NCBI GenBank assembly: GCA_964016885.1
Contig: OZ024764.1
Span: 26,226,001-26,290,000 of the forward strand
DNA from: Eledone cirrhosa
Lineage: Eukaryota
Length of the DNA: 64,000 nt
Reading direction: 5' to 3'
Each line of letters opens with the position of its first letter. The first letter of the stretch is position 1. The translations under genes and the position numbers were made by a program. Shown piece by piece: positions 8,268 to 57,295 of this stretch. The notes beneath the pieces were generated by a model, which ran no database searches, was not told the origin of the DNA, and saw only the letters and a list, made by a program, of their open reading frames with translations.

Positions 8268-8505
8268 TATATATATATATATTAAAATAACAGATTAAAG
8301 TTTAAGCAAAGAATCGGTGCTTTCACCCTTAACGGGAGTTTCAGAAGACCCCGTTAAGGGTGAAAGCAGCGATTCTTTGCTTAAACTTTAATCTGTTATT
8401 TTAATAAATATTTGCTCTAGGGTTCTTATATATTTGATATATATTTATCCTTATCTTTGGATTTTAGTCTTCGCATTTATTATTATTACTATCATATATA
8501 TATAT
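8268..8505 (+). mobile_element. Short (TA)n-flanked fold-back element
   Basis: ~55-bp inverted arms at 8281-8405 followed by a unique tail. Related copies without the hairpin at ~47115-47250 and ~44740-44830. Confidence 0.7.
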
Positions 8506-8856
8506 CATCCTCCTTACGAGGTCGATAAAATAAAGTACCAGTAATGCACTGGGTAATTGCTGGCCTTGTGCCTAAAGTAGAAACAATTATCGTTTAACAT
8601 CCATCTTCCACGCTAGAGAAAGAAAGAAAGAGTTTAAGGGCTAGAACACACGCTGGGGGGGGGGGGCTTTTCTCTGAAGGCCTTCTGCTGTCCTGAGAGT
8701 TTCTTACCACTTGTGGGAGTTGAGAAAACAAGGAGTAGAAAAAAGGGTTGTGGGAGCCATGGCAGCCATACTGTGGTACAGTCAATAGGGTGAAGGTTAA
8801 AATAAAAAGTACAGTGAGGAATAAAGTGTATGGTTAGTTGTGCACCAGTTAGTTGT

Positions 8857-9420
8857 GACCACCAGGGCCCAGTTCTCAGTCTCCTTATGTTTGTCAGTGA
8901 CCACCAGGGCCCAGTTCTCAGTTCCCTTCTCTTTGTCAATGACCACAGGGCTCAGTTCTCAGTTCCCTTCTCTTTGTCAGTGACCACAGGGCTCAGTTCT
9001 CAGCTCCCTTATGTTTGTCATTGTCCACCAGGGCCCAGTTCTCAGCTCCCTTATGTTTGTCAGTGACCACCAGGGCCCAGTTCTCAGTTCCCTTCTCTTT
9101 GTCAGCGTCCACCAGGGCCCAGTTCTCAGTTCCCTTATGTTTGTCATTGTCCACCAGGGCCCAGTTCTCAGTTCCCTTCTCTTTGTCAGCGTCCACCAGG
9201 GCCCAGTTCTCAGTTCCCTTCTCTTTGTCAGCGTCCACCAGGGCCCAGTTCTCAGTTCCCTTCTCTTTGTCAGTGTCCACCAGGGCCCAGTTCTCAGTTC
9301 CCTTCTCTTTGTCAGAGTTCCCCTGGCCATAACAGAAGAGCTTAAGACCAGCTATATGTGGGAACTCTTGTACACAAATGACCTAGTTCTCATAGCTGAA
9401 TCTGTGATAAGAGTTAAAAG
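8857..9420 (+). repeat. 42-bp minisatellite (~11 copies) from the reverse transcriptase motif-B region of an RTE LINE
   Basis: Unit encodes VHQGPVLSSLLFVS (cf. GVHQGSVLSPLLF). It continues into AITEELKTSYMWELLYTNDLVLIAES, a degenerate YADD region. Confidence 0.85.
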
Positions 9421-10269
9421 CAAAATCTCAGGACCCCAATGGTAGATGAACAGTATCAGTAGATGAATGGCTTGTAAGGGCCATACAGGTCATGTCAGCA
9501 GAGTTAGAGGGTACTCCAATATGGTTATGACCTGGTTATTATAGCTGAATCTGTGGCGGAATTAATAGCAACATTTTAGACATGAAAGCAATACCTGGAA
9601 TTGAAAGGCTTCAGAGTAAACATGGCTGAGATTAATAGGAAGGACAGACACATCATTGGTACCATCAGAGTTATGACAGGTCATATATATGGCTAGTGTT
9701 AGGAAGGGCATCCAGCCATAGAAACCAAGCCAAAATCGGTCCAGTGTGTGCTGGAGACGCTCATCCGATCTAGGTTGTCTCACATCTGGACAACTCATCT
9801 AACCCATGCTAGCGTGGAAAAATGGACGTTAAACGATGATGATGATATATACACACACACTAACAGAGAAGGTAAACTTTGTATTTGGCTCTACAGGTAT
9901 GGTTAGTAGTAAGAGCATGAGTAAAAAAAAATCTACCTTTCCCAATCCCAAGAAGGATCCATAGAAGTAGTTGATATCTTTTGCTACTTAGCTGATACTA
10001 TTAGTTGTGGAAGCAACAGAACTGAGAAGATAGTAGCTAGAATAAAGACAGGATAGGATAGTTACCTCCGTTTCTCTCTATGAAAGAAAGACCAAGTATA
10101 TGATGTTGGTGTTCGATGTCTGATGTTGCATGGCAGTGAGATATGGCCAGTGAATGCAAAGGATATGCAAAGGCTAGACGGTAATGAAGCAAGCACTCCA
10201 GTGGATGTGCAATGTTAGTGTGCATGAACAAATATACATAGATAACCTGCAAGAATACCAGGACATAAG

Positions 10270-13210
10270 AGGACAGATTTGATGGGCAAAACCAACCGGA
10301 AAGAGACCCAGGGGTAGACCCCGAGCAAGATGGTTAGATAACATTCATGAATTGAGAGATCACAGCTCTGATACTACAGACATGTGGTTAGAATGTCTCA
10401 GGAAAGAATCTCTGAATTGAGAGATCACAGCTCTGATACTACAGACATGTGGTTAGAATGTCTCAGGAAAGAATCTCTGGATTGAGAGATCACAGCTCTG
10501 ATACTACAGACATGTGGTTAGAATGTCTCAGGAAAGAATCTCTGGATTGAGAGATCACAGCTCTGATACTACAGACATGTGGGTAGAATGTCTCAGGAAA
10601 GAATCTCTGGATTGAGAGATCACAGCTCTGATACTACAGACATGTGGGTAGAATGTCTCAGGAAAGAATCTCTGAATTGAGAGATCACAGCTCTGATACT
10701 ACAGACATGTGGTTAGAATGTCTCAGGAAAGAATCTCTGGATTGAGAGATCACAGATCTGATACTACAGACATGTGGGTAGAATGTCTCAGGAAAGAATC
10801 TCTGGATTGAGAGATCACAGCTCTGATACTACAGACATGTGGGTAGAATGTCTCAGGAAAGAATCTCTGAATTGAGAGATCACAGCTCTGATACTACAGA
10901 CATGTGGTTAGAATGTCTCAGGAAAGAATCTCTGGATTGAGAGATCACAGCTCTGATACTACAGACATGTGGGTAGAATGTCTCAGGAAAGAATCTCTGA
11001 ATTGAGAGATCACAGCTCTGATACTACAGACATGTGGTTAGAATGTCTCAGGAAAGAATCTCTGAACTGAGAGATCACAGCTCTGATAATACAGACATGT
11101 GGTTAGAATGTCTGAAGAAAGAATCTCTGGATTGAGAGATCACAGCTCTGATACTACAGACATGGGGTTAGAATGTCTCAGGAAAGAATCTCTGAATTGA
11201 GAGATCACAGCTCTGATACTACAGACATGTGGTTAGAATGTCTCAGGAAAGAATCTCTGGATTGAGAGATCACAGCTCTGATACTACAGACATGTGGGTA
11301 GAATGTCTCAGGAAAGAATCTCTGAATTGAGAGACCACAGCTCTGATACTACAGACATGTGGTTAGAATGTCTCAGGAAAGAATCTCTGGATTGAGAGAT
11401 CACAGCTCTGATACTACAGACATGTGGGTAGAATGTCTCAGGAAAGAATCTCTGAATTGAGAGATCACAGCTCTGATACTACAGACATGTGGTTAGAATG
11501 TCTCAGGAAAGAATCTCTGAATTGAGAGATCACAGCTCTGATACTACAGACATGTGGTTAGAATGTCTCAGGAAAGAATCTCTGAATTGAGAGATCACAG
11601 CTCTGATACTACAGACATGTGGTTAGAATGTCTGAAGAAAGAATCTCTGGATTGAGAGATCACAGCTCTGATACTACAGACATGTGGTTAGAATGTCTCA
11701 GGAAAGAATCTCTGAACTGAGAGATCACAGCTCTGATAATACAGACATGTGGTTAGAATGTCTGAAGAAAGAATCTCTGGATTGAGAGATCACAGCTCTG
11801 ATACTACAGACATGGGGTTAGAATGTCTCAGGAAAGAATCTCTGAATTGAGAGATCACAGCTCTGATACTACAGACATGTGGTTAGAATGTCTGAAGAAA
11901 GAATCTCTGGATTGAGAGATCACAGCTCTGATACTACAGACATGTGGTTAGAATGTCTCAGGAAAGAATCTCTGAACTGAGAGATCACAGCTCTGATAAT
12001 ACAGACATGTGGTTAGAATGTCTGAAGAAAGAATCTCTGGATTGAGAGATCACAGCTCTGATACTACAGACATGGGGTTAGAATGTCTCAGGAAAGAATC
12101 TCTGAATTGAGAGATCACAGCTCTGATACTACAGACATGTGGTTAGAATGTCTCAGGAAAGAATCTCTGGATTGAGAGATCACAGCTCTGATACTACAGA
12201 CATGTGGGTAGAATGTCTCAGGAAAGAATCTCTGAATTGAGAGACCACAGCTCTGATACTACAGACATGTGGTTAGAATGTCTCAGGAAAGAATCTCTGG
12301 ATTGAGAGATCACAGATCTGATACTACAGACATGTGGTTAGAATGTCTCAGGAAAGAATCTCTGAATTGAGAGATCACAGCTCTGATACTACAGACATGT
12401 GGTTAGAATGTCTGAAGAAAGAATCTTTGGATTGAGAGATCACAGCTCTGATACTACAGACATGTGGGTAGAATGTCTCAGGAAAGAATCTCTGAATTGA
12501 GAGATCACAGCTCTGATACTACAGACATGTGGTTAGAATGTCTCAGGAAAGAATCTCTGAATTGAGAGATAACAGCTCTGATACTACAGACATGTGGTTA
12601 GAATGTCTGAAGAAAGAATCTCTGGATTGAGAGATCACAGCTCTGATACTACAGACATGTGGTTAGAATGTCTCAGGAAAGAATCTCTGGATTGAGAGAT
12701 CACAGCTCTGATACTACAGACATGTGGTTAGAATGTCTCAGGAAAGAATCTCTGGATTGAGAGATCACAGCTCTGATACTACAGACATGTGGTTAGAATG
12801 TCTCAGGAAAGAATCTCTGGATTGAGAGATCACAGCTATGATACTACAGACATGTGGTTAGAATGTCTGAAGAAGGAATCTCTGAATTGAGAGATCACAG
12901 CTCTGATACTACAGACATGTGGTTAGAATGTCTGAAGAAAGAATCTCTGAATTGAGAGATCACAGCTCTGATACTACAGACATGTGGTTAGAATGTCTCA
13001 GGAAAGAATCACTGGACAGATTTTACGGGTAAAATCAACCAGCAGGAGACCCAGGTGTAGACTCTGATCAAGATGGTTGGTTGGTCATGCTTAGGGATCC
13101 AGCTGGATCAGTTGGAGACGCTTGCTTTAGACAGGACCTGCTAGAAGGAATGTTTGAGGACTCTTCGCCCATGACCCTCGCAGGAATAAATGGGAGGAGA
13201 AGAAGAAGAT
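10270..13210 (+). repeat. 60-bp RTE-derived satellite (~10350-13010, ~44 copies) within an RTE 3' fragment
   Basis: Same unit as 6770-7740. Ends in cactggacagattttacggg, followed by the LINE 3' end and a GAA-type tail. Confidence 0.9.
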
Positions 13211-13674
13211 GTAATGTGCAGGAGAGAAGACTGTGCTAGTATGGACATGTTGCGTGTGTAAGAACGATGAGCATTAGGTGAAGTGCCAAGAAATCCCAGT
13301 ATAAGGGAACTACAGTAGAGGGAGGTCAAGGATGACCTGTGCAGGAAGCTCACAGTGGAGATCATGAAGGAAGCTGACTTGGGAAGGGCAGCTGTACTGG
13401 CAAAGACCCATCCAACTCATGCAGGCATGGAAAAACTGATGTAAAACACTTTTGATCACGTGTGCATTCACATACAAATATTATATATCTGCACGTATAT
13501 ATATGTATAACAAATTTAATATAGAAATGGCTTTTACAGGACTAGAACTGTTTCATTCAAAAAAATCATCAGGAAAGCCGACTGGCATTGTAATACGGTT
13601 GTATTTGTATGTTTTCTCATGGTTGGGAAAAGTGGTAATTTTGAGAATGGGGAGAGGTCATTGGCCATGGGATT

Positions 13675-28947: not shown

Positions 28948-29208
28948 TAGGCACACTGGAAGCGGGAGACCAAGGTTAACATATGTTGATGCCCTAAGGA
29001 CAGACATCCAGAGTTGACACTGCACTCAGTGCTCCTGTGGGAGCCCCTACATGGACACACTGGAAGAGGGAGACCGAGGTTAACATATGTTGATGACCTA
29101 AGGATAGACACTGGTCTGTTGGAGATGCAGGACATGGCAGCGATAATGAGGGACAGAGACCACTGGAGAGAACTCGTTCATGGATCTCAGGAATTTTACC
29201 CGCCCTAG
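28948..29208 (+). mobile_element. Non-LTR retrotransposon C-terminal fragment with short internal duplication
   Basis: HPELTLHSVLLWEPLHGHTGRGRPRLTYVDDL...MRDRDHW. Sister copy at 48216-48470 (-). Confidence 0.8.
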
Positions 29209-29342
29209 AATATATATATATATGTATATATATATATCAACATATATAAATCAACATCACTGCCGTTTTAACATCCACTTTCCCTGCTAGCAAGTGTTGG
29301 ATAGGTCCATATAGACCAAGTCCATAATAAAGAGGAGCCACT

Positions 29343-30145
<803 letters not shown>

Positions 30146-30231
30146 ATGTAAATGGGTATATATATATATATGTGTGATATATGTATAGGGATGTGTGTAT
30201 GTATGCATATATATGTGTATGTATGTGTGTT

Positions 30232-30269
<38 letters not shown>

Positions 30270-30273
<4 letters not shown>

Positions 30274-30860
30274 AATGATAATGAAATTATTGTGTACAGT
30301 GCTCAGGTGCACTACAACTCATCAAAGGTGCATGTATAGTACATAGAATAATGTACAAATGTCAGGAAAATGAACAGTGTATGAGTCATGATATAATAAT
30401 AATAATAATAATGAAATATTGTGTACAGTGCCCAGGTGCACCACAACTCATCAAAAAAGTGCATGTACAGTACATAGGGCAATGCACAAACATCAGTAAA
30501 ATGTGTGCATGTGTATGGAAGGGGTACATCAGGTGTAGTTTTGGCGTATTTCGGGAAGCATGAGTGTCTTAAAGGATGCAGTGTCTCGGCAGCTAACAAC
30601 TGATGCAGGGAGTTTGTTCCATGCTTCAGCAACTCTGAGCGTGAAAAAATGTCTATGAAAGTCATGGGAGCTGTGCTGTTTTCTTATCTTGTAGGCATGT
30701 CCACGTGTGTTAGACACATGGAGATCAAAAAGGTGCTCAGGGTTGCAATTGGCGAGATGGTTAATAACTTTGTGGGTATTCACCAAGTCCATTGCCAGAC
30801 GTCGGAGCTTCAATGAATCCATGCCCAGGGAAGCAAGGCGTTCAGAGTATGGTAGGTGTC
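30270..30860 (-). mobile_element. CR1/L2-type LINE 3' end, inverted relative to the adjacent copy
   Basis: Reverse complement of ~31426-31910. Its 3' UTR is partially doubled. Confidence 0.85.
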
Positions 30861-31899
30861 TCCCCCCATTGTACTTGTCCCACTTTTGATGCCCTGGTGG
30901 CAAATAAAAGAAACATATATATATATATATACACATATATGCAGATGACATCAAGCTGTACCTTGAAATCAAAAGGACTGATCCTGAAATTTACAACTCT
31001 TTCCTACAATCAGACCTCAGACCTGGACACAATGCAGCAATGGATCACAGACTGGCAACTGAAGCTGGCTGTGGACAAGTGTACCACCATGCATTTTGGA
31101 AGGAAAAATCCAGCGTCCACATACTCCCTCCACAACACTGATATCAAGAAGTCCTCTTGTGAACGTGACCTGGGCATTACTGTCAGCAACGATTTGCGTT
31201 GGACAAAGCATGTCTCTAAGATTGTCAAGAAGGCCGAGGGTGTCTTGGCATCACTCAGCAAGACCTTTGTTAGCCGCTCTCCAGCCATCTATTTAAAACT
31301 GTATACATCTATGGTACGACCACACTTGGAATTCGCATCATCAGTCTGGAACCCCTATCTTGCTCGGAACATTGACCTCCTGGAAACTGTTCAGAGACAT
31401 GCAACCAAGCGCATACCCTCCATCAGACACCTACCATACTCTGAACGCCTTGCTTCCCTGGGCATGGATTCATTGAAGCTACGACGTCTGGCAATGGACT
31501 TGGTGAATACCCACAAAGTTTTTAACCATCTCGCCAACTGCAACCCTGAGCGCCTCTTTGATCTCCATGTGTCTAACACACGTGGACATGCCTACAAGAT
31601 AAGAAAACAGCACAGCTCCCATGACTTTCGCAGACATTTTTTCACGCTCAGAGTTGCTGAAGCATGGAACAAACTGCCTGCGTCAATTGTTAGCTGCCGA
31701 GACACTGCATCCTTTAAGACACTCATGCTTCCCGAAATACGCCAAAACTACACCTGATGTACCCCTTCCATACACATGCACACATGTGTGTATCATGACT
31801 CGTGCACTGTTTATTTTCCTGACATTTGTACATTATTCTATGTACTATACATGCACCTTTGATGAGTTGTAGTGCACCTGAGCACTGTACACAATAATT

Positions 31900-31938
<39 letters not shown>
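30861..31938 (+). mobile_element. CR1/L2-type LINE, RT C-terminal half plus 3' UTR and (ATT)n tail
   Basis: YADDIKLY motif, then ERDLGI, YTSMVRPHLEFASSVWNP, LETVQRHATK and FFTLRVAEAWNKLP. Confidence 0.9.
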
Positions 31939-31940
<2 letters not shown>

Positions 31941-32239
31941 ATGCACCACACCACACAACCCACTCCCACACATCACACACGAGGACAAGCTGAAGTATAC
32001 ATCCAGTAAGGACCCGTTTCTGTTACCCAGAAAGTTCCCCTTCAAGACACAAGCCCGGTCTAGGTGCTTTGTAGAAGATGAAATCCGGCCCGAGATGTTA
32101 GAAGCCTTAAATTGAGAAGTGTGTGCCAGGCGGCCTAGATCTCTGGAAAGGCACCTAAACAATGGCAATGGGAAGTGATAATCCCAATTTTCAAAAAGGA
32201 AGATGAAAGATTGTTCCATTTACTAATGGATCTCAGTAT

Positions 32240-32475
32240 ATATATATATATATATTTTTTTTTATATTATAGAAGGAACTTCTACAGGACTAGTACTGTT
32301 TCATTCAGATGAAATCTTCAGGAGCTTCCTGAAGATTTCATCTGAATGAAACAGTACTAGTCCTGTAGAAGTTCCTTCTATAATATAAAAAAATTTTACT
32401 CTGCCATGTATTGAGTACCTTACTTACTGTGGTTATCCCTGACTCAACCCGGGACCTACGTATATATATATATAT
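32240..32475 (+). mobile_element. (TA)n-flanked fold-back element with hammerhead-like core
   Basis: ~68-bp near-perfect arms around ggagcttcc. CTGAAGA...GAAAC at 32329-32352. Tail gtattgagtacc...tgtggtta...cccggga. Confidence 0.75.
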
Positions 32476-33109
32476 AAGGTTAGTAATTTAAAACTCTACT
32501 TCAGAGATTTGATTCTGACTTAGTTTTTTTTCTATTTAATTGCTAAACCTGTAGATATTGTTCTCCATACAGTAACGGTTAAACTCACATGTAATAATTC
32601 TTTACACACATCTCACTGTGTAACACACTTCTCTCTGTGTAATATATTTGTAGTGAAAGAGTGAAGAATAACACGGTCAACAGTACAAGAAGGGTTTTAT
32701 TTACAGTATTAACAATTGTTTCATTGATTAAGTTGTCTAAAAATTGCTAATCACTTGAAGTTGTGTCACTCAATTTTAAATACAATGTATGCTTAATCAA
32801 ATCATCAGAAAAACTGATAAATACTGTAAATAAAACCCTTTTTGTACTGTTGACCATGTTATTCTTCACTCTTTCACTGTTATTACTCCAAGAATCACCT
32901 AGATGGGAATTCTCACAAACTCGCCACCTAACTAAGGAAACCTCTTGTTGAGTGAAACAACGCCGTACGTTAAAACTATCCGCAATACAAAGTACTCACA
33001 ACCTCTAACTGGATTACCTATAACGATAATTTGTTATCCCATATATATATATATATGTGTATATATATCAACCTGCCCATCCCCTCAATCTATCTTATTT
33101 CTGATTCTT

Positions 33110-33145
33110 TCTTCTGATGAAGGACTAGTGTCCGAAACGTTAAGA
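33110..33145 (+). ncRNA. Minimal type I hammerhead ribozyme motif (Penelope-like element type)
   Basis: UCUU-CUGAUGA-A-GGAC(UAGU)GUCC-GAAA-CG-UU^-AAGA. Conserved core, 4-bp stem II, palindromic ACGU stem III, 4-bp stem I. Confidence 0.75.
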
Positions 33146-33233
33146 CCCTCTTCCTGCTATATCAAGCGTTAACCTAATATATTCCTTCCATATACTGTAC
33201 TGATTGTGTTGTTGTTTCTGTTTACCTTTTACA

Positions 33234-33553
<320 letters not shown>

Positions 33554-33557
33554 ATAT

Positions 33558-34632
33558 CATCATCATCATCATCATCATCAACGTTTAACGTCCGTGTTCC
33601 ACGCTTGCATGGGTTTGGACGGGGGTAGTCCCACTTGAGGCAAGAGTGATTGTCTTGCTCGCATAGGACTGTCTGGCAGGTTTTCTACAGTTGGATGCCC
33701 TTCCTAACACCAACCACATTTACAGTGTGGGTCTGGGAGGTTTTTACCGTGTTGCCTACACGGCCACATTACAGCGTGGACTGTGTGTTTTTTTGTCGTG
33801 ACACCTACACGATCTCATTTGTTTCGGCCTCGATGGTGCGGCACCAACATAACTTTACATAGAACGGGGTGGTGTGGATCGGGTGGGGGTGGGGGTGGTG
33901 GGACGGGGTGTATTTTGTTAGAGATGCCTACTGGCTGGAGTAGGTTTTACTATATATTTAGGTAAGGCGGGTCTTCAAAGGTCTCGGTCCAGTGACATTG
34001 TCTTGGAGAGGTGTAAGTGTGTGATGTCGGAGTTTATCAGCTCGTCCCAGGTTTTTCTAGGTCTGCCTATTCCGTGACTACCGTCTATCTTTATTGCCCT
34101 GCACTTTGTTATACAGCTATCGACTTTCATGCGCATCACGTGTCCATACCAACGTAGCCTTCTCTCGAGTAAACAACATCTGATCCCTCTTATCTCTAAT
34201 TTATTCCTTAGTTCGTTTATGCTTTGCCGTTCACGTATATTACTGTTACACATCCAGCGGAGCATGCAAGCTTCGTTCCTCTCTAGTCTGCGTATATCCT
34301 CTGCACACAATGCCCAGGTCTCACTGCCATGCAGCATTGCTGTTCGTATGCAGGCATCGTACAACCTGCCTTTCATTTTTAGTGAGAACCCTTTAGCAGC
34401 TAATAGTGGTATAAGCTCTCTGAACTTTTTCCAACCAGTTCTGACTCTAGCTACAGTACTTTCAGAGCACCCTCCCCCACTGCTGATTTTATCGCCCAGG
34501 TAACGGAAGCTGTCCACTATTTCTATAGAACCCTCTGCGCAATTGAAAGAGCTAGTAGTTTGTGGGCACTTGCTGCTACTTATTGCACCAGAGCACCGGC
34601 CACATGTAAAATCTATGTTCTTAGTTAGCTTA

Positions 34633-34635
<3 letters not shown>
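33558..34635 (-). mobile_element. RTE LINE 3' portion with long 3' UTR and (GAT)n tail
   Basis: DSFRYLGD..ARVRTGWKKFREL..KGRLYDACIRTAMLHGSETW..RRLRWYGHVMRM..GRPRKTW. Confidence 0.9.
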
Positions 34636-34668
<33 letters not shown>

Positions 34669-34673
<5 letters not shown>

Positions 34674-35045
34674 AGTAAGTATGTTTTGAAACAGTGAGCA
34701 GGTTTGAAATTAGAAAATAGAATAGCTTTCACCGTATTTTTGACTAAAGGAATTTTAGCCTGATAATGGGGTTTAGAACCCTCAGATAGATGGAAAAAGA
34801 TGAGTATTGACGTACATGGGAGTCGAACCTACATCTTTGGTTATCCGGACCACTGTGCTACCATTTACACCAACACATCACCCTTGTGTTGGTGTAATTG
34901 TAGCACAGTGGTCGCGATAACCAAAGATGTGAGTTCGACTCCCATGTACGTCAATACTCATCTTTTTCCATCTATCTGAGGGTTCTAAACCCCATTATCA
35001 GGCTAAAATTCTTTTAGTCAAAAATACGGTGAAAGCTATTCTATT
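34669..35045 (-). mobile_element. tRNA-headed short element with head-to-head inverted partial copy, in (TA)n
   Basis: Arms 34716-34877 and 34885-35045 with a 7-nt loop. Segment 34808-34879 (-) folds as a cloverleaf with A box TGGTGTAAATGG and B box GGTTCGACTCC. Confidence 0.8.
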
Positions 35046-35120
35046 ATATATATATGTATATATATATATACATATATATACATACATATATATACATACA
35101 CATATATATATATAAATATA

Positions 35121-35397
35121 TAAAGAGGAATTAAACGATGGTTAAAAGAGTTCCATATATTTTATTATGCGCATTTCGAATACAAAATCATCCTGGGACA
35201 AAAATTGTGTTCTCATCAATTGTGTTGTCCCAGGATGATTTTGTATTCGAAATGCGCATAATAAAATATATGGAACTCTTTTAACCATCTTTTAATTCCT
35301 CTTTACTATATATACTCCAGTTCTACCAACTGTTGAGTGCTACTTATCTGATATATGCTTAGTTTTATTGTTCTACAATATTACTCACCTTCTACAT
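35121..35397 (+). mobile_element. (TA)n-flanked fold-back element
   Basis: ~80-bp arms at 35121-35305, containing GGATGA..GAAA-TGCGCAT (variant hammerhead-like). The tail carries ttgagtgct. Confidence 0.7.
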
Positions 35398-35420
35398 ATA
35401 TATATATATATATATATATA

Positions 35421-35798
35421 ACAAATGAGATCGTGTAGGTGTCACGACAAAAAACACACAGTCCACGCTGTAATGTGGCCGTGTAGGCAACATGGTAAAA
35501 ACCTCCCAGCCCCACACTGTAAATGTGGTTGGTGTTAGGAAGGGCATCCAGCTGTAGAAAACCTGCCAGACAGTCCACGCTGTAATGTGGCCGTGTAGGC
35601 AACACGGTAAAAACCTCCCAGCCCCACACTGTAAATGTGGTTGGTGTTAGGAAGGGCATCCAGCTGTAGAAAACCCGCCAGACAGTCCTATGCGAGCAAG
35701 ACAACCACTCTTGCCTCAAGTGGGAAAACCCCCGTCCAAACCCATGCAAGCGTGGAACATGGACGTTAAACGTTGATGATGATGATGATGATGATGAT
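35421..35798 (+). mobile_element. RTE 3' UTR/SINE-like copy with internal ~115-bp duplication
   Basis: Inverted relative to 33558-33822; (GAT)n tail. Confidence 0.8.
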
Positions 35799-36340
35799 AC
35801 CTGTATAGATATAAATTAGTGTGCAAATTGTCCTGATATCAAAAAGCAAATAAGGTTCAAAGGGAGATAATCAGGTAATATTGTGATTCACATGCCAATC
35901 TGTTCAGCCAAGTACAGGCCTTATGTTGTCTGTAGAGAGATACTCAACCACTTTAAATGTACATAAATCTAACAATAAAATTCATTGACAACTATTGTAT
36001 GAACTGGAAAAACCAGATTGTCAACAGTTGATGAAAATAGCCTTGATTAAATATATATATATGTAATAATATTGTTATACTTTGGGAGGGTCATGTTGCC
36101 AATAAGAAACACACGCACCAGTTGCTTTCACTTCAATTTATTATATATTTATAAATTTACAAATCTACAAACTTATAAATTTCTGGTTGGTTGGTTGGTT
36201 CCACAACCAGATAGTTGTTTATATATAGTCATAGTCCTTTCGTCAAAATGGCGTAGGAAACAAAAACAAAAACAAAAACAGAAACAAAATGGCGTAGGAT
36301 AGAAGAAAGGAAAGGCACAGAAACAAAGGAAGGAATCCCC

Positions 36341-36385
36341 AGTCACTGAAGAGGTCACAGAGTGTGTGACGAAAGGACTATGACT
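36341..36385 (+). ncRNA. Minimal type I hammerhead ribozyme motif
   Basis: AGUCA-CUGAAGA-G-GUCACA(GAGUG)UGUGAC-GAAA-GGAC-UA^-UGACU. Intact core, 6-bp stem II, 5-bp stem I, predicted cleavage after 36380. Confidence 0.82.
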
Positions 36386-36464
36386 ATATATAAACAACTA
36401 TCTGGTTGTGGAACCAACCAACCAACCAGAAATTTATAAGTTTGTAGATTTGTAAATTTATAAA

Positions 36465-37496
36465 TCTATATATATAAAACTGAGGTTGTCTGTCTGTCTA
36501 TCGATTTTTGGCACACATCTCCTCTTAGAATTTCTCACGGAATTGCACCGAAATTGCTATACTTGTACATTGAGCCCTAGCGAAGACATCGGAAAAAAAA
36601 TATTTCAAATTGACCCGCCCTATCTGACGAAATCGAATATAATGTATCGATTTTTGAGCGTAAGTGATCAGTTATTTCCCTTTGTTCTGTTTACATTGAG
36701 CGTCTGCGTGCAAAAATTAAAAAATTTACGCTGGCTTTCTCAGCGTTTAAAATGACATTAACACAATACACGAACAGTTGTCAAGTCAGCAAAATTTTGA
36801 CCTGCAAAATTCATCAGTTCGAACACTAGGCTTCCGTTTTGCTTCATTTCCATTTAAAAGCCTTTTAAAACAATATTTTTACTTGAAAACAAGTCTATTT
36901 AAAAACTACTTAAAACAAGCAAATATTTCGTAAAAAAAAGCAAAAATTATATAAGTTTATTTAAAATATATGTATCTGTAAATTTCGTTAGGCGTGCAGA
37001 CAGACAGTCGTGCAGAGAGGTGATATACGCGTGCAGACAGATAGTCGTGCAGAGAGGTGATATACGCGTGCAGACAGACAGTCGTGCAGAGAGGTGATAT
37101 AGGCGTGCAGACAGACAGTCGTGCAGAGAGGTGATATAGGCGTGCAGACAGACAGTCGTGCAGAGAGGTGATATAGGCGTGCAGACAGACATAACTGATA
37201 ATTTGGTTACGCTAATGTTTTTCTCTGCGTTGCAGTGTTTACATTTTCGATCTTTGTTAATAAATAACCAGTGCAGTTTTTATCCCCAGCATCCTCTTTT
37301 GTTATAACATTCGGGTTATCGTTATGTTTTCTTAACTTCATAAGGCATATTGTTGGTTGAGGGAATATTAATCAAAAACACCACATGCAAGTCTGCACAG
37401 TAGACACTACAGTTTTTAAGCCAAGAAAGAAACTTAACATTGTAACTTTAACACAGCTACTGAGCGACCCCGAGCAACGCCGGGCTTTACTGCTAG
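36465..37496 (+). mobile_element. Non-autonomous Helitron with internal 37-bp minisatellite (~36990-37190)
   Basis: 5' TC(tatatatataaaa), 3' cccgagcaacgccggg hairpin followed by CTAG. Inserted between A and T with no target-site duplication. Confidence 0.88.
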
Positions 37497-38054
37497 TATA
37501 TAATAAATTGAAGTGAAAGCAACTGGTGCGTGTGTTTCTTATTGGCAACATGACCCTCCCAAAGTATAACAATATCGGTTTCAACACACGATTTCAGATA
37601 AAGAATCTTGCTAAACAAATTCAGAAACGAAATATGTAATAATAATAATATTTATACTTATATATAGCTTATATATAATTATAAATATGGAGGGTAGTAA
37701 TAAGCACTAGTGAGTTACCGGTAAGAGAAAAGGCTCAATGTAAATTATCAAATGTGTTACAGAGCCGAGATACAAAATATAAAACAATAAAATCTTAGTT
37801 TAATATATTTAATTGCTGACAATTGTTTCTTCCAGATGAATGTTTGGATTCAGCGGAGCATAGGGAATGTTTAAACATATATATATATATATATGTGGAG
37901 AGATAGAGTGAGACAGAGTGGAAGTGAGAAACAGATATAGAGGAAGAATCAACCCCAGTATTAGACTGGTACTTTTTTTTATGACCTCGAAAGAATGAAA
38001 GGCAAAGTTGATCTCAGTGGCATTTGAAGAGACCAAATGTGACAAAGCAATACA

Positions 38055-39210
38055 TCTCTTTAGCATTTAAACCACCCATATCCGGCCAGAATTCTTTCAC
38101 CTCTTTCTGTTCAAACCGGCTGTAACTGGCTGCTCATACTGATATTAAGATATTGTTCTCAAAATAAATAACATTAAAATCTCAGAGATTCGTTATTATG
38201 TGAGGTAACTATGTAAGATAAAGCCTTTACTGTGAAAATACAATAGTATATATAGAGTAATGTAAATGTTATGTGAGATATGTGAGGTAAAGCCTTTACT
38301 GTGAAAATACAATAGTATATATAGAGTAATGTAAATGTTATGTGAGATATTATGTGAGGTAAAGCCTTTACTGTGAAAATACAATAGTATATATAGAGTA
38401 ATGTAAATGTTATGTGAGATATTATGTGAGGTAAAGCCTTTACTGTGAAAATACAATAGTATTTATAGAGTAATGTAAATGTTATGTGAGATATTATGTG
38501 AGGTAAAGCCTTTACTGTGACAATACAATAGTATATATAGAGTAATGTAAATGTTATGTGAGATATTATGTGAGGTAAAGTCTTTACTGTGAAAATACAA
38601 TAGTATATATAGAGTAATGTAAATGTTATGTGAGATATTATGTGAGGTAAAGCCTTTACTGTGAAAATACAATAGTATTTATAGAGTAATGTAAATGTTA
38701 TGTGAGATATTATGTGAGGTAAAGCCTTTACTGTGACAATACAATAGTATATATAGAGTAATGTAAATGTTATGAGATATTATGTGAGGTAAAGCCTTTA
38801 CTGTGACAATACAATAGTATATATAGAGTAATGTAAATGTTATGTGAGATATTATGTGAGGTAAAGCCTTTACTGTGACAATACAATAGTATATATAGAG
38901 TAATGTAAATGTTATGTGAGATATTATGTGAGGTAAAGCCTTTACTGTGACAATACAATAGTATATATAGAGTAATGTAAATGTTATGTGAGATATTATG
39001 TGAGGTAAAGCCTTTACTGTGACAATACAATAGTATATATAGAGTAATGTAAATGTTATGTGAGATATTATGTGAGGTAAAGCCTTTACTGTGACAATAC
39101 AATAGTATATATAGAGTAATGTAAATGTTATGTGAGATATTATGTGAGGTAAAGCCTTTACTGTGACAATACAATAGTATATATAGAGTAATGTGAATGT
39201 TATGTGGGAT
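38055..39210. repeat. Second MITE copy carrying the 72-bp satellite (~14 copies)
   Basis: Same unit as 13816-14597, with a homologous but more diverged left flank. Confidence 0.85.
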
Positions 39211-39392
39211 ATATATATCATCATCATCGTTTAATGTCTTCCAGGATAGCATGGGTTTAGACGGGAATTGTACCACATGAGGCAAAATTGGTTGTCTTGC
39301 TCGTATAGGACTGTCTGGCATGATTTTTACGGCTGATGCCCTTCCTAACACCAACCATGTTTACAGTTATATATATATATATATATATATAT

Positions 39393-39505
39393 ATAGGAAC
39401 GAGTAGGGGTCCTACTCGTTCCTATTACCCACTCTACTACCCTAAGTATTGAGTACTTTGGTGCGTTATGGTCCACCTGGTTCCTTACCACATTTCCTTC
39501 GTTAT
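39393..39505 (+). mobile_element. Truncated (TA)n-flanked element with a 15-bp perfect fold-back at its 5' end
   Basis: ataggaacgagtagg-ggt-cctactcgttcctat, followed by the tail shared with 33280-33340. Confidence 0.7.
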
Positions 39506-56001: not shown

Positions 56002-57295
56002 TTAACCCTTTAGTATTTACATTACTCTATATCTACTATTGTATTTTCACAGTTAAGGCTTTACCTCACATAATATCTCACATAACATTTACATTACTCT
56101 ATATATACTATTGTATTTTCACAGTAAAGGCTTTACCTCACATAATATCTCACATAACATTTACATTACTCTATATATACTATTGTATTGTCACAGTAAA
56201 GGCTTTACCTCACATAATATCTCACATAACATTTACATTACTCTATATATACTATTGTATTTTCACAGTAAAGGCTTTACCTCACATATCTCACATAACA
56301 TTTACATTACTCTATATATACTATTGTATTTTCACAGTAAAGGCTTTACCTCACATAATACCTCACATAACATTTACATTACTCTATATATACTATTGTA
56401 TTTTCACAGTAAAGGCTTCACCTCACATAATATCCCACATAACATTTACATTACTCTATATATACTATTGTATTTTCACAGTAAAGGCTTTACCTCACAT
56501 AATATCCCACATAACATTTACATTACTCTATATATACTATTGTATTGTCACAGTAAAGGCTTTACCTCACATAATATCCCACATAACATTTACATTACTC
56601 TATATATACTATTGTATTTTCACAGTTAAGGCTTACCTCACATAATATCTCACATAACATTTACATTACTCTATATATACTATTGTATTTTCACAGTAAA
56701 GGCTTTACCTCACATAATATCTCACATAACATTTACATTACTCTATATATACTATTGTATTGTCACAGTAAAGGCTTTACCTCACATAATACCTCACATA
56801 ACATTTACATTACTCTATATATACTATTGTATTTTCACAGTAAAGGCTTTACCTCACATAATATCTCACATAACATTTACATTACTCTATATATACTATT
56901 GTATTGTCACAGTAAAGGCTTTACCTCACATAATACCTCACATAACATTTACATTACTCTATATATACTATTGTATTTTCACAGTAAAGGCTTTACCTCA
57001 CATAATATCTCACATAACATTTACATTACTCTATATATACTATTGTATTGTCACAGTAAAGGCTTTACCTCACATAATATCTCACATAACATTTACATTA
57101 CTCTATATATACTATTGTATTTTCACAGTAAAGGCTTTATCTTAGATAATTATCTCACATAATATCGAATCTACGAGATTTTGATGTTATTTATTTTGAG
57201 AACAATACCTTAACATCAGTGTTAGTGGCTGGTTACTGCCAGTTTGAACAGAAAGAGGCGAGAGAATTCTGGCTGGATATAGCCAGTTTAACTTT
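56002..57295 (-). mobile_element. Third MITE copy carrying the 72-bp satellite (~15 copies), 30 bp after the exon 3 donor
   Basis: ttaaccctttag terminus; unit is the reverse complement of the 13.8-kb array. Confidence 0.85.

Follow-up and report, generated by a model that had tools for sequence, protein, structure and literature searches.

Six short hairpin-forming repeats (A to F) lie in or beside (TA)n tracts in a 64,000-nucleotide (nt) stretch of the Eledone cirrhosa genome (assembly GCA_964016885.1, contig OZ024764.1, forward-strand positions 26,226,001 to 26,290,000), called the window here and numbered from its first base. They are probably the 5′-truncated 3′ ends of several families of Penelope-like elements (PLEs), each insertion into (TA)n comprising an inverted copy, a forward copy and a tail. 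This reading rests on their anatomy, since the same arrangement within a microsatellite is the one published for PLE insertions, which carry an inverted 5′-truncated copy, have a tail at one end and are biased towards microsatellites (PMC8557442, PMC8969392). The architecture itself is a known one, and it is the families that are likely to be new. A preliminary description of this DNA had already proposed the Penelope-like link, insertion into (TA)n and folds at variable points, all of which are supported. It had also proposed separate non-autonomous families, for which truncated 3′ ends of ordinary PLEs (PMC8557442) are the simpler reading.

Anatomy of the hairpins

An arm pair was found at all six sites, with arms of 14–177 base pairs (bp) and loops of 3–23 nt in five hairpins and 121 nt in one (E), close to the 15 to ~175 bp and usually tiny loops described before. 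Scanned in an unbiased way for perfect, non-simple arms (at least 14 bp, loop at most 30 nt), the window gave 6 hairpins, whereas none of 30 shuffles gave any. A TA tract of at least 10 nt lies within 10 nt of 11 of the 12 outer ends, against 3.4% of non-TA positions, a figure biased by the choice of the six elements for their TA context. Overall, the window has a GC content of 38.6% and contains 143 such tracts.

Each element has an unpaired tail at its 3′ end only. In A, the inverted arm (8283–8336, minus strand), adjoined by a TA tract at 8268–8282, pairs with 8350–8403 (53/54 matched, loop 13) of a forward copy at 8337–8493 (plus) whose tail is 90 nt long (8404–8493). B consists of an inverted arm at 32257–32323 (minus), pairing perfectly with 32327–32393 (67/67, loop 3), and a forward copy at 32324–32460 (plus) with a 67-nt tail (32394–32460). 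C lies in the opposite orientation, its forward copy at 34670–34884 (minus) and its inverted arm at 34885–35044 (plus); 34717–34877 pairs with the latter at 154 of 161 positions (loop 7), leaving a tail of 47 nt (34716–34670). The arms of D, 35121–35201 (inverted, minus) and 35225–35305, match at 80 of 81 positions around a loop of 23 nt, and its forward copy (35202–35395, plus) ends in a 90-nt tail (35306–35395). F is the smallest, with 14 of 14 matched bases between 39394–39407 (inverted, minus) and 39411–39424, a loop of 3 nt and a forward copy at 39408–39502 (plus) with a tail of 78 nt (39425–39502).

E has the longest arms. Its inverted arm (36069–36245, minus) matches the right arm at 177 of 177 positions, the latter being split into 36367–36465 and 37497–37575, and its forward copy spans 36246–37636 (plus), with a tail of ~60 nt from 37576 to ~37636. 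The split is due to an insert of ~1 kb (36465–37496, plus) present only in this arm. We take the insert to be Helitron-like from its ends (a TC start, a CTAG end, an A|T target and a subterminal hairpin); it is non-coding, has a 37-bp internal tandem and is younger than E. An open frame at 37550–37636 (plus) has its ATG inside the E arm and runs through the E tail to the AT-rich flank; a search for homologues of it found none.

The inverted arm begins at a near-fixed point, 47–90 nt inside the 3′ end, and the fold marks a variable 5′ truncation. The elements had been seen as full units with an inverted partial copy of their 5′ part; what remains unpaired is instead the tail at the 3′ end, and the fold or stop lies elsewhere in related copies.

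Relatives keep their outer ends and vary in the fold

Further pieces of the same families occur in the window. Their inverted arms differ in length: 14 nt in F and ~45 nt in its relative H, 67 nt in B and 43 nt in a B relative. H (33280–33403, minus) has the longer inverted arm, a 6-bp hairpin at the junction and a tail, lacks the forward arm and carries the 3′ half of a hammerhead (33362–33390 on the plus strand); the F tail is 92% identical to 33282–33346 within it. The B relative at 47480–47621 (plus; 87% and 79% identity to B) likewise has an inverted arm, a short junction and a tail, and no forward arm. Only the tail is found at 47995–48042 (minus; 90% to the B tail), and 13517–13575 (minus; 82% to B) is a hammerhead part without tail that continues upstream of the B fold point. 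Of A, there are a tail-only copy with TA on both sides (44742–44825, plus; match extent 44732–44828, 87%) and a forward copy without inverted arm (47112–47252, plus; 74%), which starts at the same base as the A forward copy. A further element, G, is a solo end in TA (33069–33236, plus) without an inverted arm, with a second copy at 15000–15145 (minus; 89%). At least four such pieces lie within 1 kb around TA tracts at 47112–48052, which suggests repeated insertion at one site.

A shared hairpin at the start of the tail

The bodies had been called unrelated, which is not wholly so: a common hairpin motif opens the tails of B, D and F, 5–10 nt past the arm end (32398–32416 in B, 35314–35338 in D and 39431–39454 in F). 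In it, RCTC is followed by a stem, different from family to family yet still paired, and then by TTGAGY; in D the hairpin is the minimum-energy fold of the tail. There are five such motifs in the window: three at the arm ends of B, D and F, one in the tail-only copy of B and one at 37765–37733, in a further tail-like piece (37672–37790, minus; ends approximate). As this count is not significant, it is the position of the motif that constitutes the evidence. Nor is the count evidence for an 11-base tail motif, which has four exact matches where 2.6 would be expected with one mismatch allowed.

We compared the elements by eye with the published Hydra-clade hammerhead table and tail consensi. The tail hairpin is present in two of the six Hydra consensi, a variant and a partial form occur in two more, and the remaining two end before the hairpin. 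No published description of a conserved PLE tail hairpin was found in literature listings.

Hammerhead motifs

A search with a full type I hammerhead descriptor returned three intact motifs in the window, against a mean of 0.05 in 20 shuffles: in B (32329–32367), E (36346–36380, minimal) and the solo end G (33114–33141, minimal). The Rfam hammerhead families gave no match at gathering score, nor at E values up to 10 in the 30–42 kb region. Hammerhead cores had been expected in many of the elements, and only two of the six (B and E) have one intact. A has a hammerhead-like motif (8342–8382) with a one-base core change, common to its relative at 47112; D has a degenerate hammerhead-like stretch without a descriptor match, and C and F also lack an intact core. 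Neither the hammerheads nor the tails gave remarkable folding z-scores (best −1.65).

In B, stem II of the hammerhead is flanked by one unpaired base on either side and stem III starts as in the Hydra-clade table, and (TA)n insertion combined with this hammerhead pattern holds for both B and its relative at 13517–13575. B looks like a Hydra-clade end, and A, D and F/H are probably of the same kind, while the minimal hammerheads of E and G look like those of another PLE type.

The preliminary description placed the fold just 5′ of the core in several elements. This is so in B, where the fold lies inside a 4-bp inverted repeat that is itself part of the 9-bp hammerhead stem I; in A and E the fold lies inside the core (the inverted arm of E ends within stem II), and in the others elsewhere. 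It never falls at the cut site, and the hammerheads are whole, not split there. Hammerhead cleavage was therefore rejected as what sets the fold.

The tRNA-bearing family C

Copy data came from the window and from one set of public sequencing runs, of which 4 of the 23 listed were aligned to element C, one of the six: two contig sets (X1, possibly the assembly's own sample, and X4) and two raw Illumina restriction-site-associated DNA runs (X21 and X22). The family is high-copy, with 3503 contigs in X1, 50 in X4 and 3065 and 2808 reads in X21 and X22, respectively.

We detected 52 different fold joints, 15 of them listed. Twelve of these 15 lie within 10 nt of symmetry, with left ends all at 34810–34821, and 7–8 have 2–4 shared bases. 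The most frequent joint, from 34814 to 34943, has a 4-base palindrome at its centre; it occurs in 24 raw reads from 6 starts in one run and 29 from 10 starts in the other, and in 6 + 1 contigs. Molecule ends accumulate at 34751–34754 (equivalent to 35010 on the other arm), where the loose ends are mixed and AT-rich. The arm of the family likely ends here as a rule, giving a tail of ~82 nt, although subfamily divergence could contribute. Loose ends at 34672 are TA-rich, and those at 34708–34711 likely reflect a short indel variant.

These data bear on whether the hairpins are miniature inverted-repeat transposable elements (MITEs) or fold-back artefacts of sequencing or assembly. Short non-coding inverted repeats in TA are what MITEs look like, and library chimeras can form at palindromes. 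Inverted repeats at both termini around a fixed interior, as in MITEs, are not seen, given the unpaired tail and the 52 joints of C. Only one end takes part in the repeat, folds vary, the flanking DNA does not share in the inversion, and individual arms have changes of their own, such as the 1-kb insert in one arm of E. The chimera reading fails as well: joints of C recur with many fold points in raw Illumina reads of two further samples, from many starts. Both explanations are very improbable.

C contains a transfer RNA (tRNA)-like segment at 34879–34808 (Rfam tRNA, 36.9 bits; tRNA-Ser(gga) by ARAGORN), and the left ends of the joints fall on its acceptor/T-arm side. Five Ts follow ~10 nt past the segment. 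The idea that C begins at the tRNA was rejected: a 25-nt extension upstream is common to 185 and 189 reads (agreement 0.85–0.86), so the tRNA is internal and copies continue at least 25 nt upstream. One deep X4 contig runs from 34883 straight into (AT)n, another continues for ~2 kb, and no other copy of the extension occurs in the window. In terms of a tRNA-derived short interspersed nuclear element (SINE), C has the tRNA-related head, but the 5′ end of the family does not lie at it. No published description of a tRNA-bearing family with a PLE signature was found in the same literature listings, and a motif scan of metagenomes gave 0 matches for C.

C is the element for which an alternative to ordinary truncated PLEs is most plausible, namely that some or all of the elements form true non-autonomous families, with their own 5′ end or as tandem retrozyme-like units, mobilized in trans by PLE proteins. 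PLE derivatives of such a kind are published (PMC8557442; bioRxiv 10.64898/2026.07.22.740005). C is high-copy, its tRNA-like segment could be an RNA polymerase III (Pol III) promoter, (AT)n follows directly on position 34883 in the deep contig, and two copies of A share their start base. Set against this are the copies of C that extend upstream of the tRNA. In addition, a run of Ts terminates Pol III transcription, and the five Ts would end such a transcript before the tail. None of the six elements has head-to-tail copies, and the hammerheads are whole. Overall, we regard this alternative as doubtful. The retrozyme-like character claimed earlier finds no counterpart either, as head-to-tail arrays and ends at the ribozyme cut are absent.

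For C in particular, a non-autonomous, tRNA-bearing family moved by PLE proteins, with folds arising from reverse transcriptase (RT) stalling in the T-arm and snap-back on a short palindrome, is a tentative and rather unlikely proposal. A modified T-loop base could cause such a stall.

How the inverted copies may have formed

Under the preferred reading as truncated PLE 3′ ends, insertion would proceed in five steps. The GIY-YIG endonuclease of a PLE would nick (TA)n, as is known for the class, with target-primed reverse transcription in AT-rich DNA (PMC11167929). RT would then prime on the nick at one of two starts bracketing the tail, as reported in vitro for a Poseidon element and as suggested here by the fixed tail end and arm end. 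After ~100–350 nt it would stall, often at folded RNA (hammerhead or tRNA T-arm); folds do cluster in family C, and stalling is their presumed cause. The cDNA end would fold on a short natural inverted repeat, be copied back to the tail boundary and be joined to the other TA end. Finally, later loss of one arm may have produced the arm-plus-tail and tail-only relics that are observed. The hammerhead would be a passenger in insertion.

The fold-back of cDNA, already suggested in the preliminary description, fits the junctions, and two cDNAs from opposite strands fit them nearly as well. For the joining step, we place snap-back slightly above an even chance and two separately primed cDNAs slightly below it. 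Snap-back is favoured by the tiny loops over arms of 14–161 nt and by the B fold inside a 4-bp repeat. In the alternative, cDNAs primed on opposite TA strands would have their 3′ ends joined without fold-back, the outer start giving the copy with tail and the inner start the inverted arm. The in vitro work showed cutting and extension on both strands, with two starts, and a dimer is predicted (PMC11167929). This accounts directly for the fixed outer arm end and the 121-nt loop of E, and palindromic junctions, which suit both models, would allow two identical ends to anneal. By contrast, loops of 3–23 nt in five of the six hairpins imply coupled ends, and the arms of B, E and F are 100% identical. 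As a full account of the hairpins, two joined cDNAs are a real possibility, although not the one we would expect.

A third route, in which the inversion came later than the insertion, through template switching during replication or through repair of breaks next to palindromic (TA)n, is improbable. In its favour, two fold-backs in the window have no PLE features: a perfect 66-bp fold-back with a 1-nt loop in microsatellite-like DNA (18700–18832) and, in an intron between copies of the A and B families, a tailless folded piece (47261–47453, 85/91 matched) derived from the 3′ half of a SINE-like repeat that is abundant. It does not predict that arms in unrelated families stop at the same tail boundary, 5–10 nt before a conserved hairpin, nor that they never include host flank.

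Several observations weigh against reading the hairpins as truncated PLEs formed by snap-back. The count of tail-hairpin motifs, five against a null mean of 1.44 and maximum of 5, is not significant, and no hammerhead is clearly the minimum-energy fold. Tails measure 47–90 nt, compared with 30–40 nt in published elements. The loop of E is long and its junction lacks microhomology, which suits two cDNAs better, and the fixed outer arm end is explained more simply by separate priming. Fold-backs are also present in non-PLE DNA (18700–18832, 47261–47453 and 30400–31914), so hairpin shape alone is not diagnostic. As the preliminary description had stated, no autonomous partner is visible: neither RT nor GIY-YIG was matched in Pfam in the 136 frames scanned of 176 candidates in the window. 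A weak homologue search with the 40-codon frame at the end of E gave two candidates, neither scored. The motifs of C had no match in published PLE consensi, where line wraps can hide matches, and no listed read or contig spans the C locus itself, so that the support is for the family and not for the site.

Other features of the window

Satellites are numerous, as are other repeats, which may resemble octopod SINEs, and exons of a major facilitator superfamily transporter (Pfam MFS_1) are present. Most elements lie between the first exons of two divergent genes, at 19685–19750 (minus) and 46479–47070 (plus), which from their translations we take to be neurofibromin- and spinster-like, respectively. 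A fragment at 30272–31914, LINE-like (long interspersed nuclear element) and presumably CR1-like, is the 3′ part of its element and has a head-to-head inverted copy of its own 3′ end, in which a core of 361 bp is 97% identical; the extreme 3′ end is present once more. One 72-bp AT-rich satellite unit forms three arrays (13800–14600, 38190–39200 and 56015–57165).

Discussion

How inverted PLE copies form is still described as undefined (PMC8557442), and short head-to-head copies in their thousands, with their folds mapped, offer a natural dataset on it. Annotation would in practice class such pieces as MITEs, SINEs or unknown repeats, and the presence of about 15 in 64 kb suggests that PLE remains are under-counted in the genome. 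Were C a tRNA-bearing passenger, it would be a SINE-like partner for PLEs, of which none was found in the literature listings. If its stalling and snap-back hold, with the Hydra tail hairpin as a likely RT-binding signal, the folds would give a direct, countable readout of inverted-copy formation.

Comparison with known systems

Retrozymes are defined by head-to-tail repeats with one hammerhead per unit (PMC7229834; bioRxiv 10.64898/2026.07.22.740005). Like the non-LTR (long terminal repeat) retrozymes of Cervera and de la Pena 2020 (PMC7229834), the elements in the window are short, non-coding and probably derived from pseudo-LTRs (pLTRs), with an intact type I hammerhead in two of the six; unlike them, they are single and head-to-head, with no head-to-tail units. 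Nor is a partial tandem (pLTR) arrangement present among the copies in the window, which is not expected of solo truncated ends. The nearest published case to C is the Schistosoma hammerhead SINE (PMC6765202). There, a short retroposed unit contains a promoter of Pol III type, as may also be so in C, but the Schistosoma repeats are tandem with an active hammerhead, whereas C is head-to-head in TA and has no intact one.

Truncated metazoan PLEs contain minimal hammerhead pairs on opposite strands, 100–700 bp apart, as well as solo motifs (PMC4209133). Like the minimal PLE hammerheads of Cervera and de la Pena 2014 (PMC4209133), those of E and G have a tiny stem III and one base more ahead of stem II; B differs in having a full 4-bp stem III. 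For the Poseidon element PAc of Anolis (Frangieh et al. 2024, PMC11167929), in vitro work showed cutting and extension of both strands, two RT starts bracketing the tail and normal insertion of hammerhead mutants. The two starts, the AT-rich target and the dispensable hammerhead are common to the scheme proposed here. PAc belongs to another clade and has another tail length, and the study leaves the joining of the inverted copy unexplained. The open frame at the end of E resembles in position the start of the open reading frame (ORF) in Poseidon pLTRs.

A scan of metagenomes for the Hydra-type pattern returned 117 loci, none a relative of the families in the window. Stems I and II pair in 7 of the 117, including L098, where the tail hairpin starts after the same hammerhead pattern. 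L079 (61–1031), L022, L036 and L048 are one metagenome contig family with a paired type I hammerhead; upstream in L079 is an RT-like frame with a weak Pfam match (RVT_1, E 0.0099), whose translation had no tblastn match in the window.

The closest parallel is with the Hydra-clade PLEs (Craig et al. 2021, PMC8557442). Almost all families in the supplement of that paper list (TA)n, among them an octopus family, and an attached inverted truncated copy is recorded for Penelope-13_HM (PMC8557442). The (TA)n target, a hammerhead ~50–200 nt from the 3′ end with the pattern of B, and the tail hairpin, present in Hydra-2_Amil and Hydra-2_Ajap, are the same. In contrast, the elements in the window have no ORF and tails of 65–90 nt, none matches the 3′ end of Hydra-1_Obim by eye, and the passages of PMC8557442 on these families do not remark on a tail hairpin. 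An octopus annotation includes 31 recently active PLE families (PMC13282606), and PLE donors are plausible in an octopod host.

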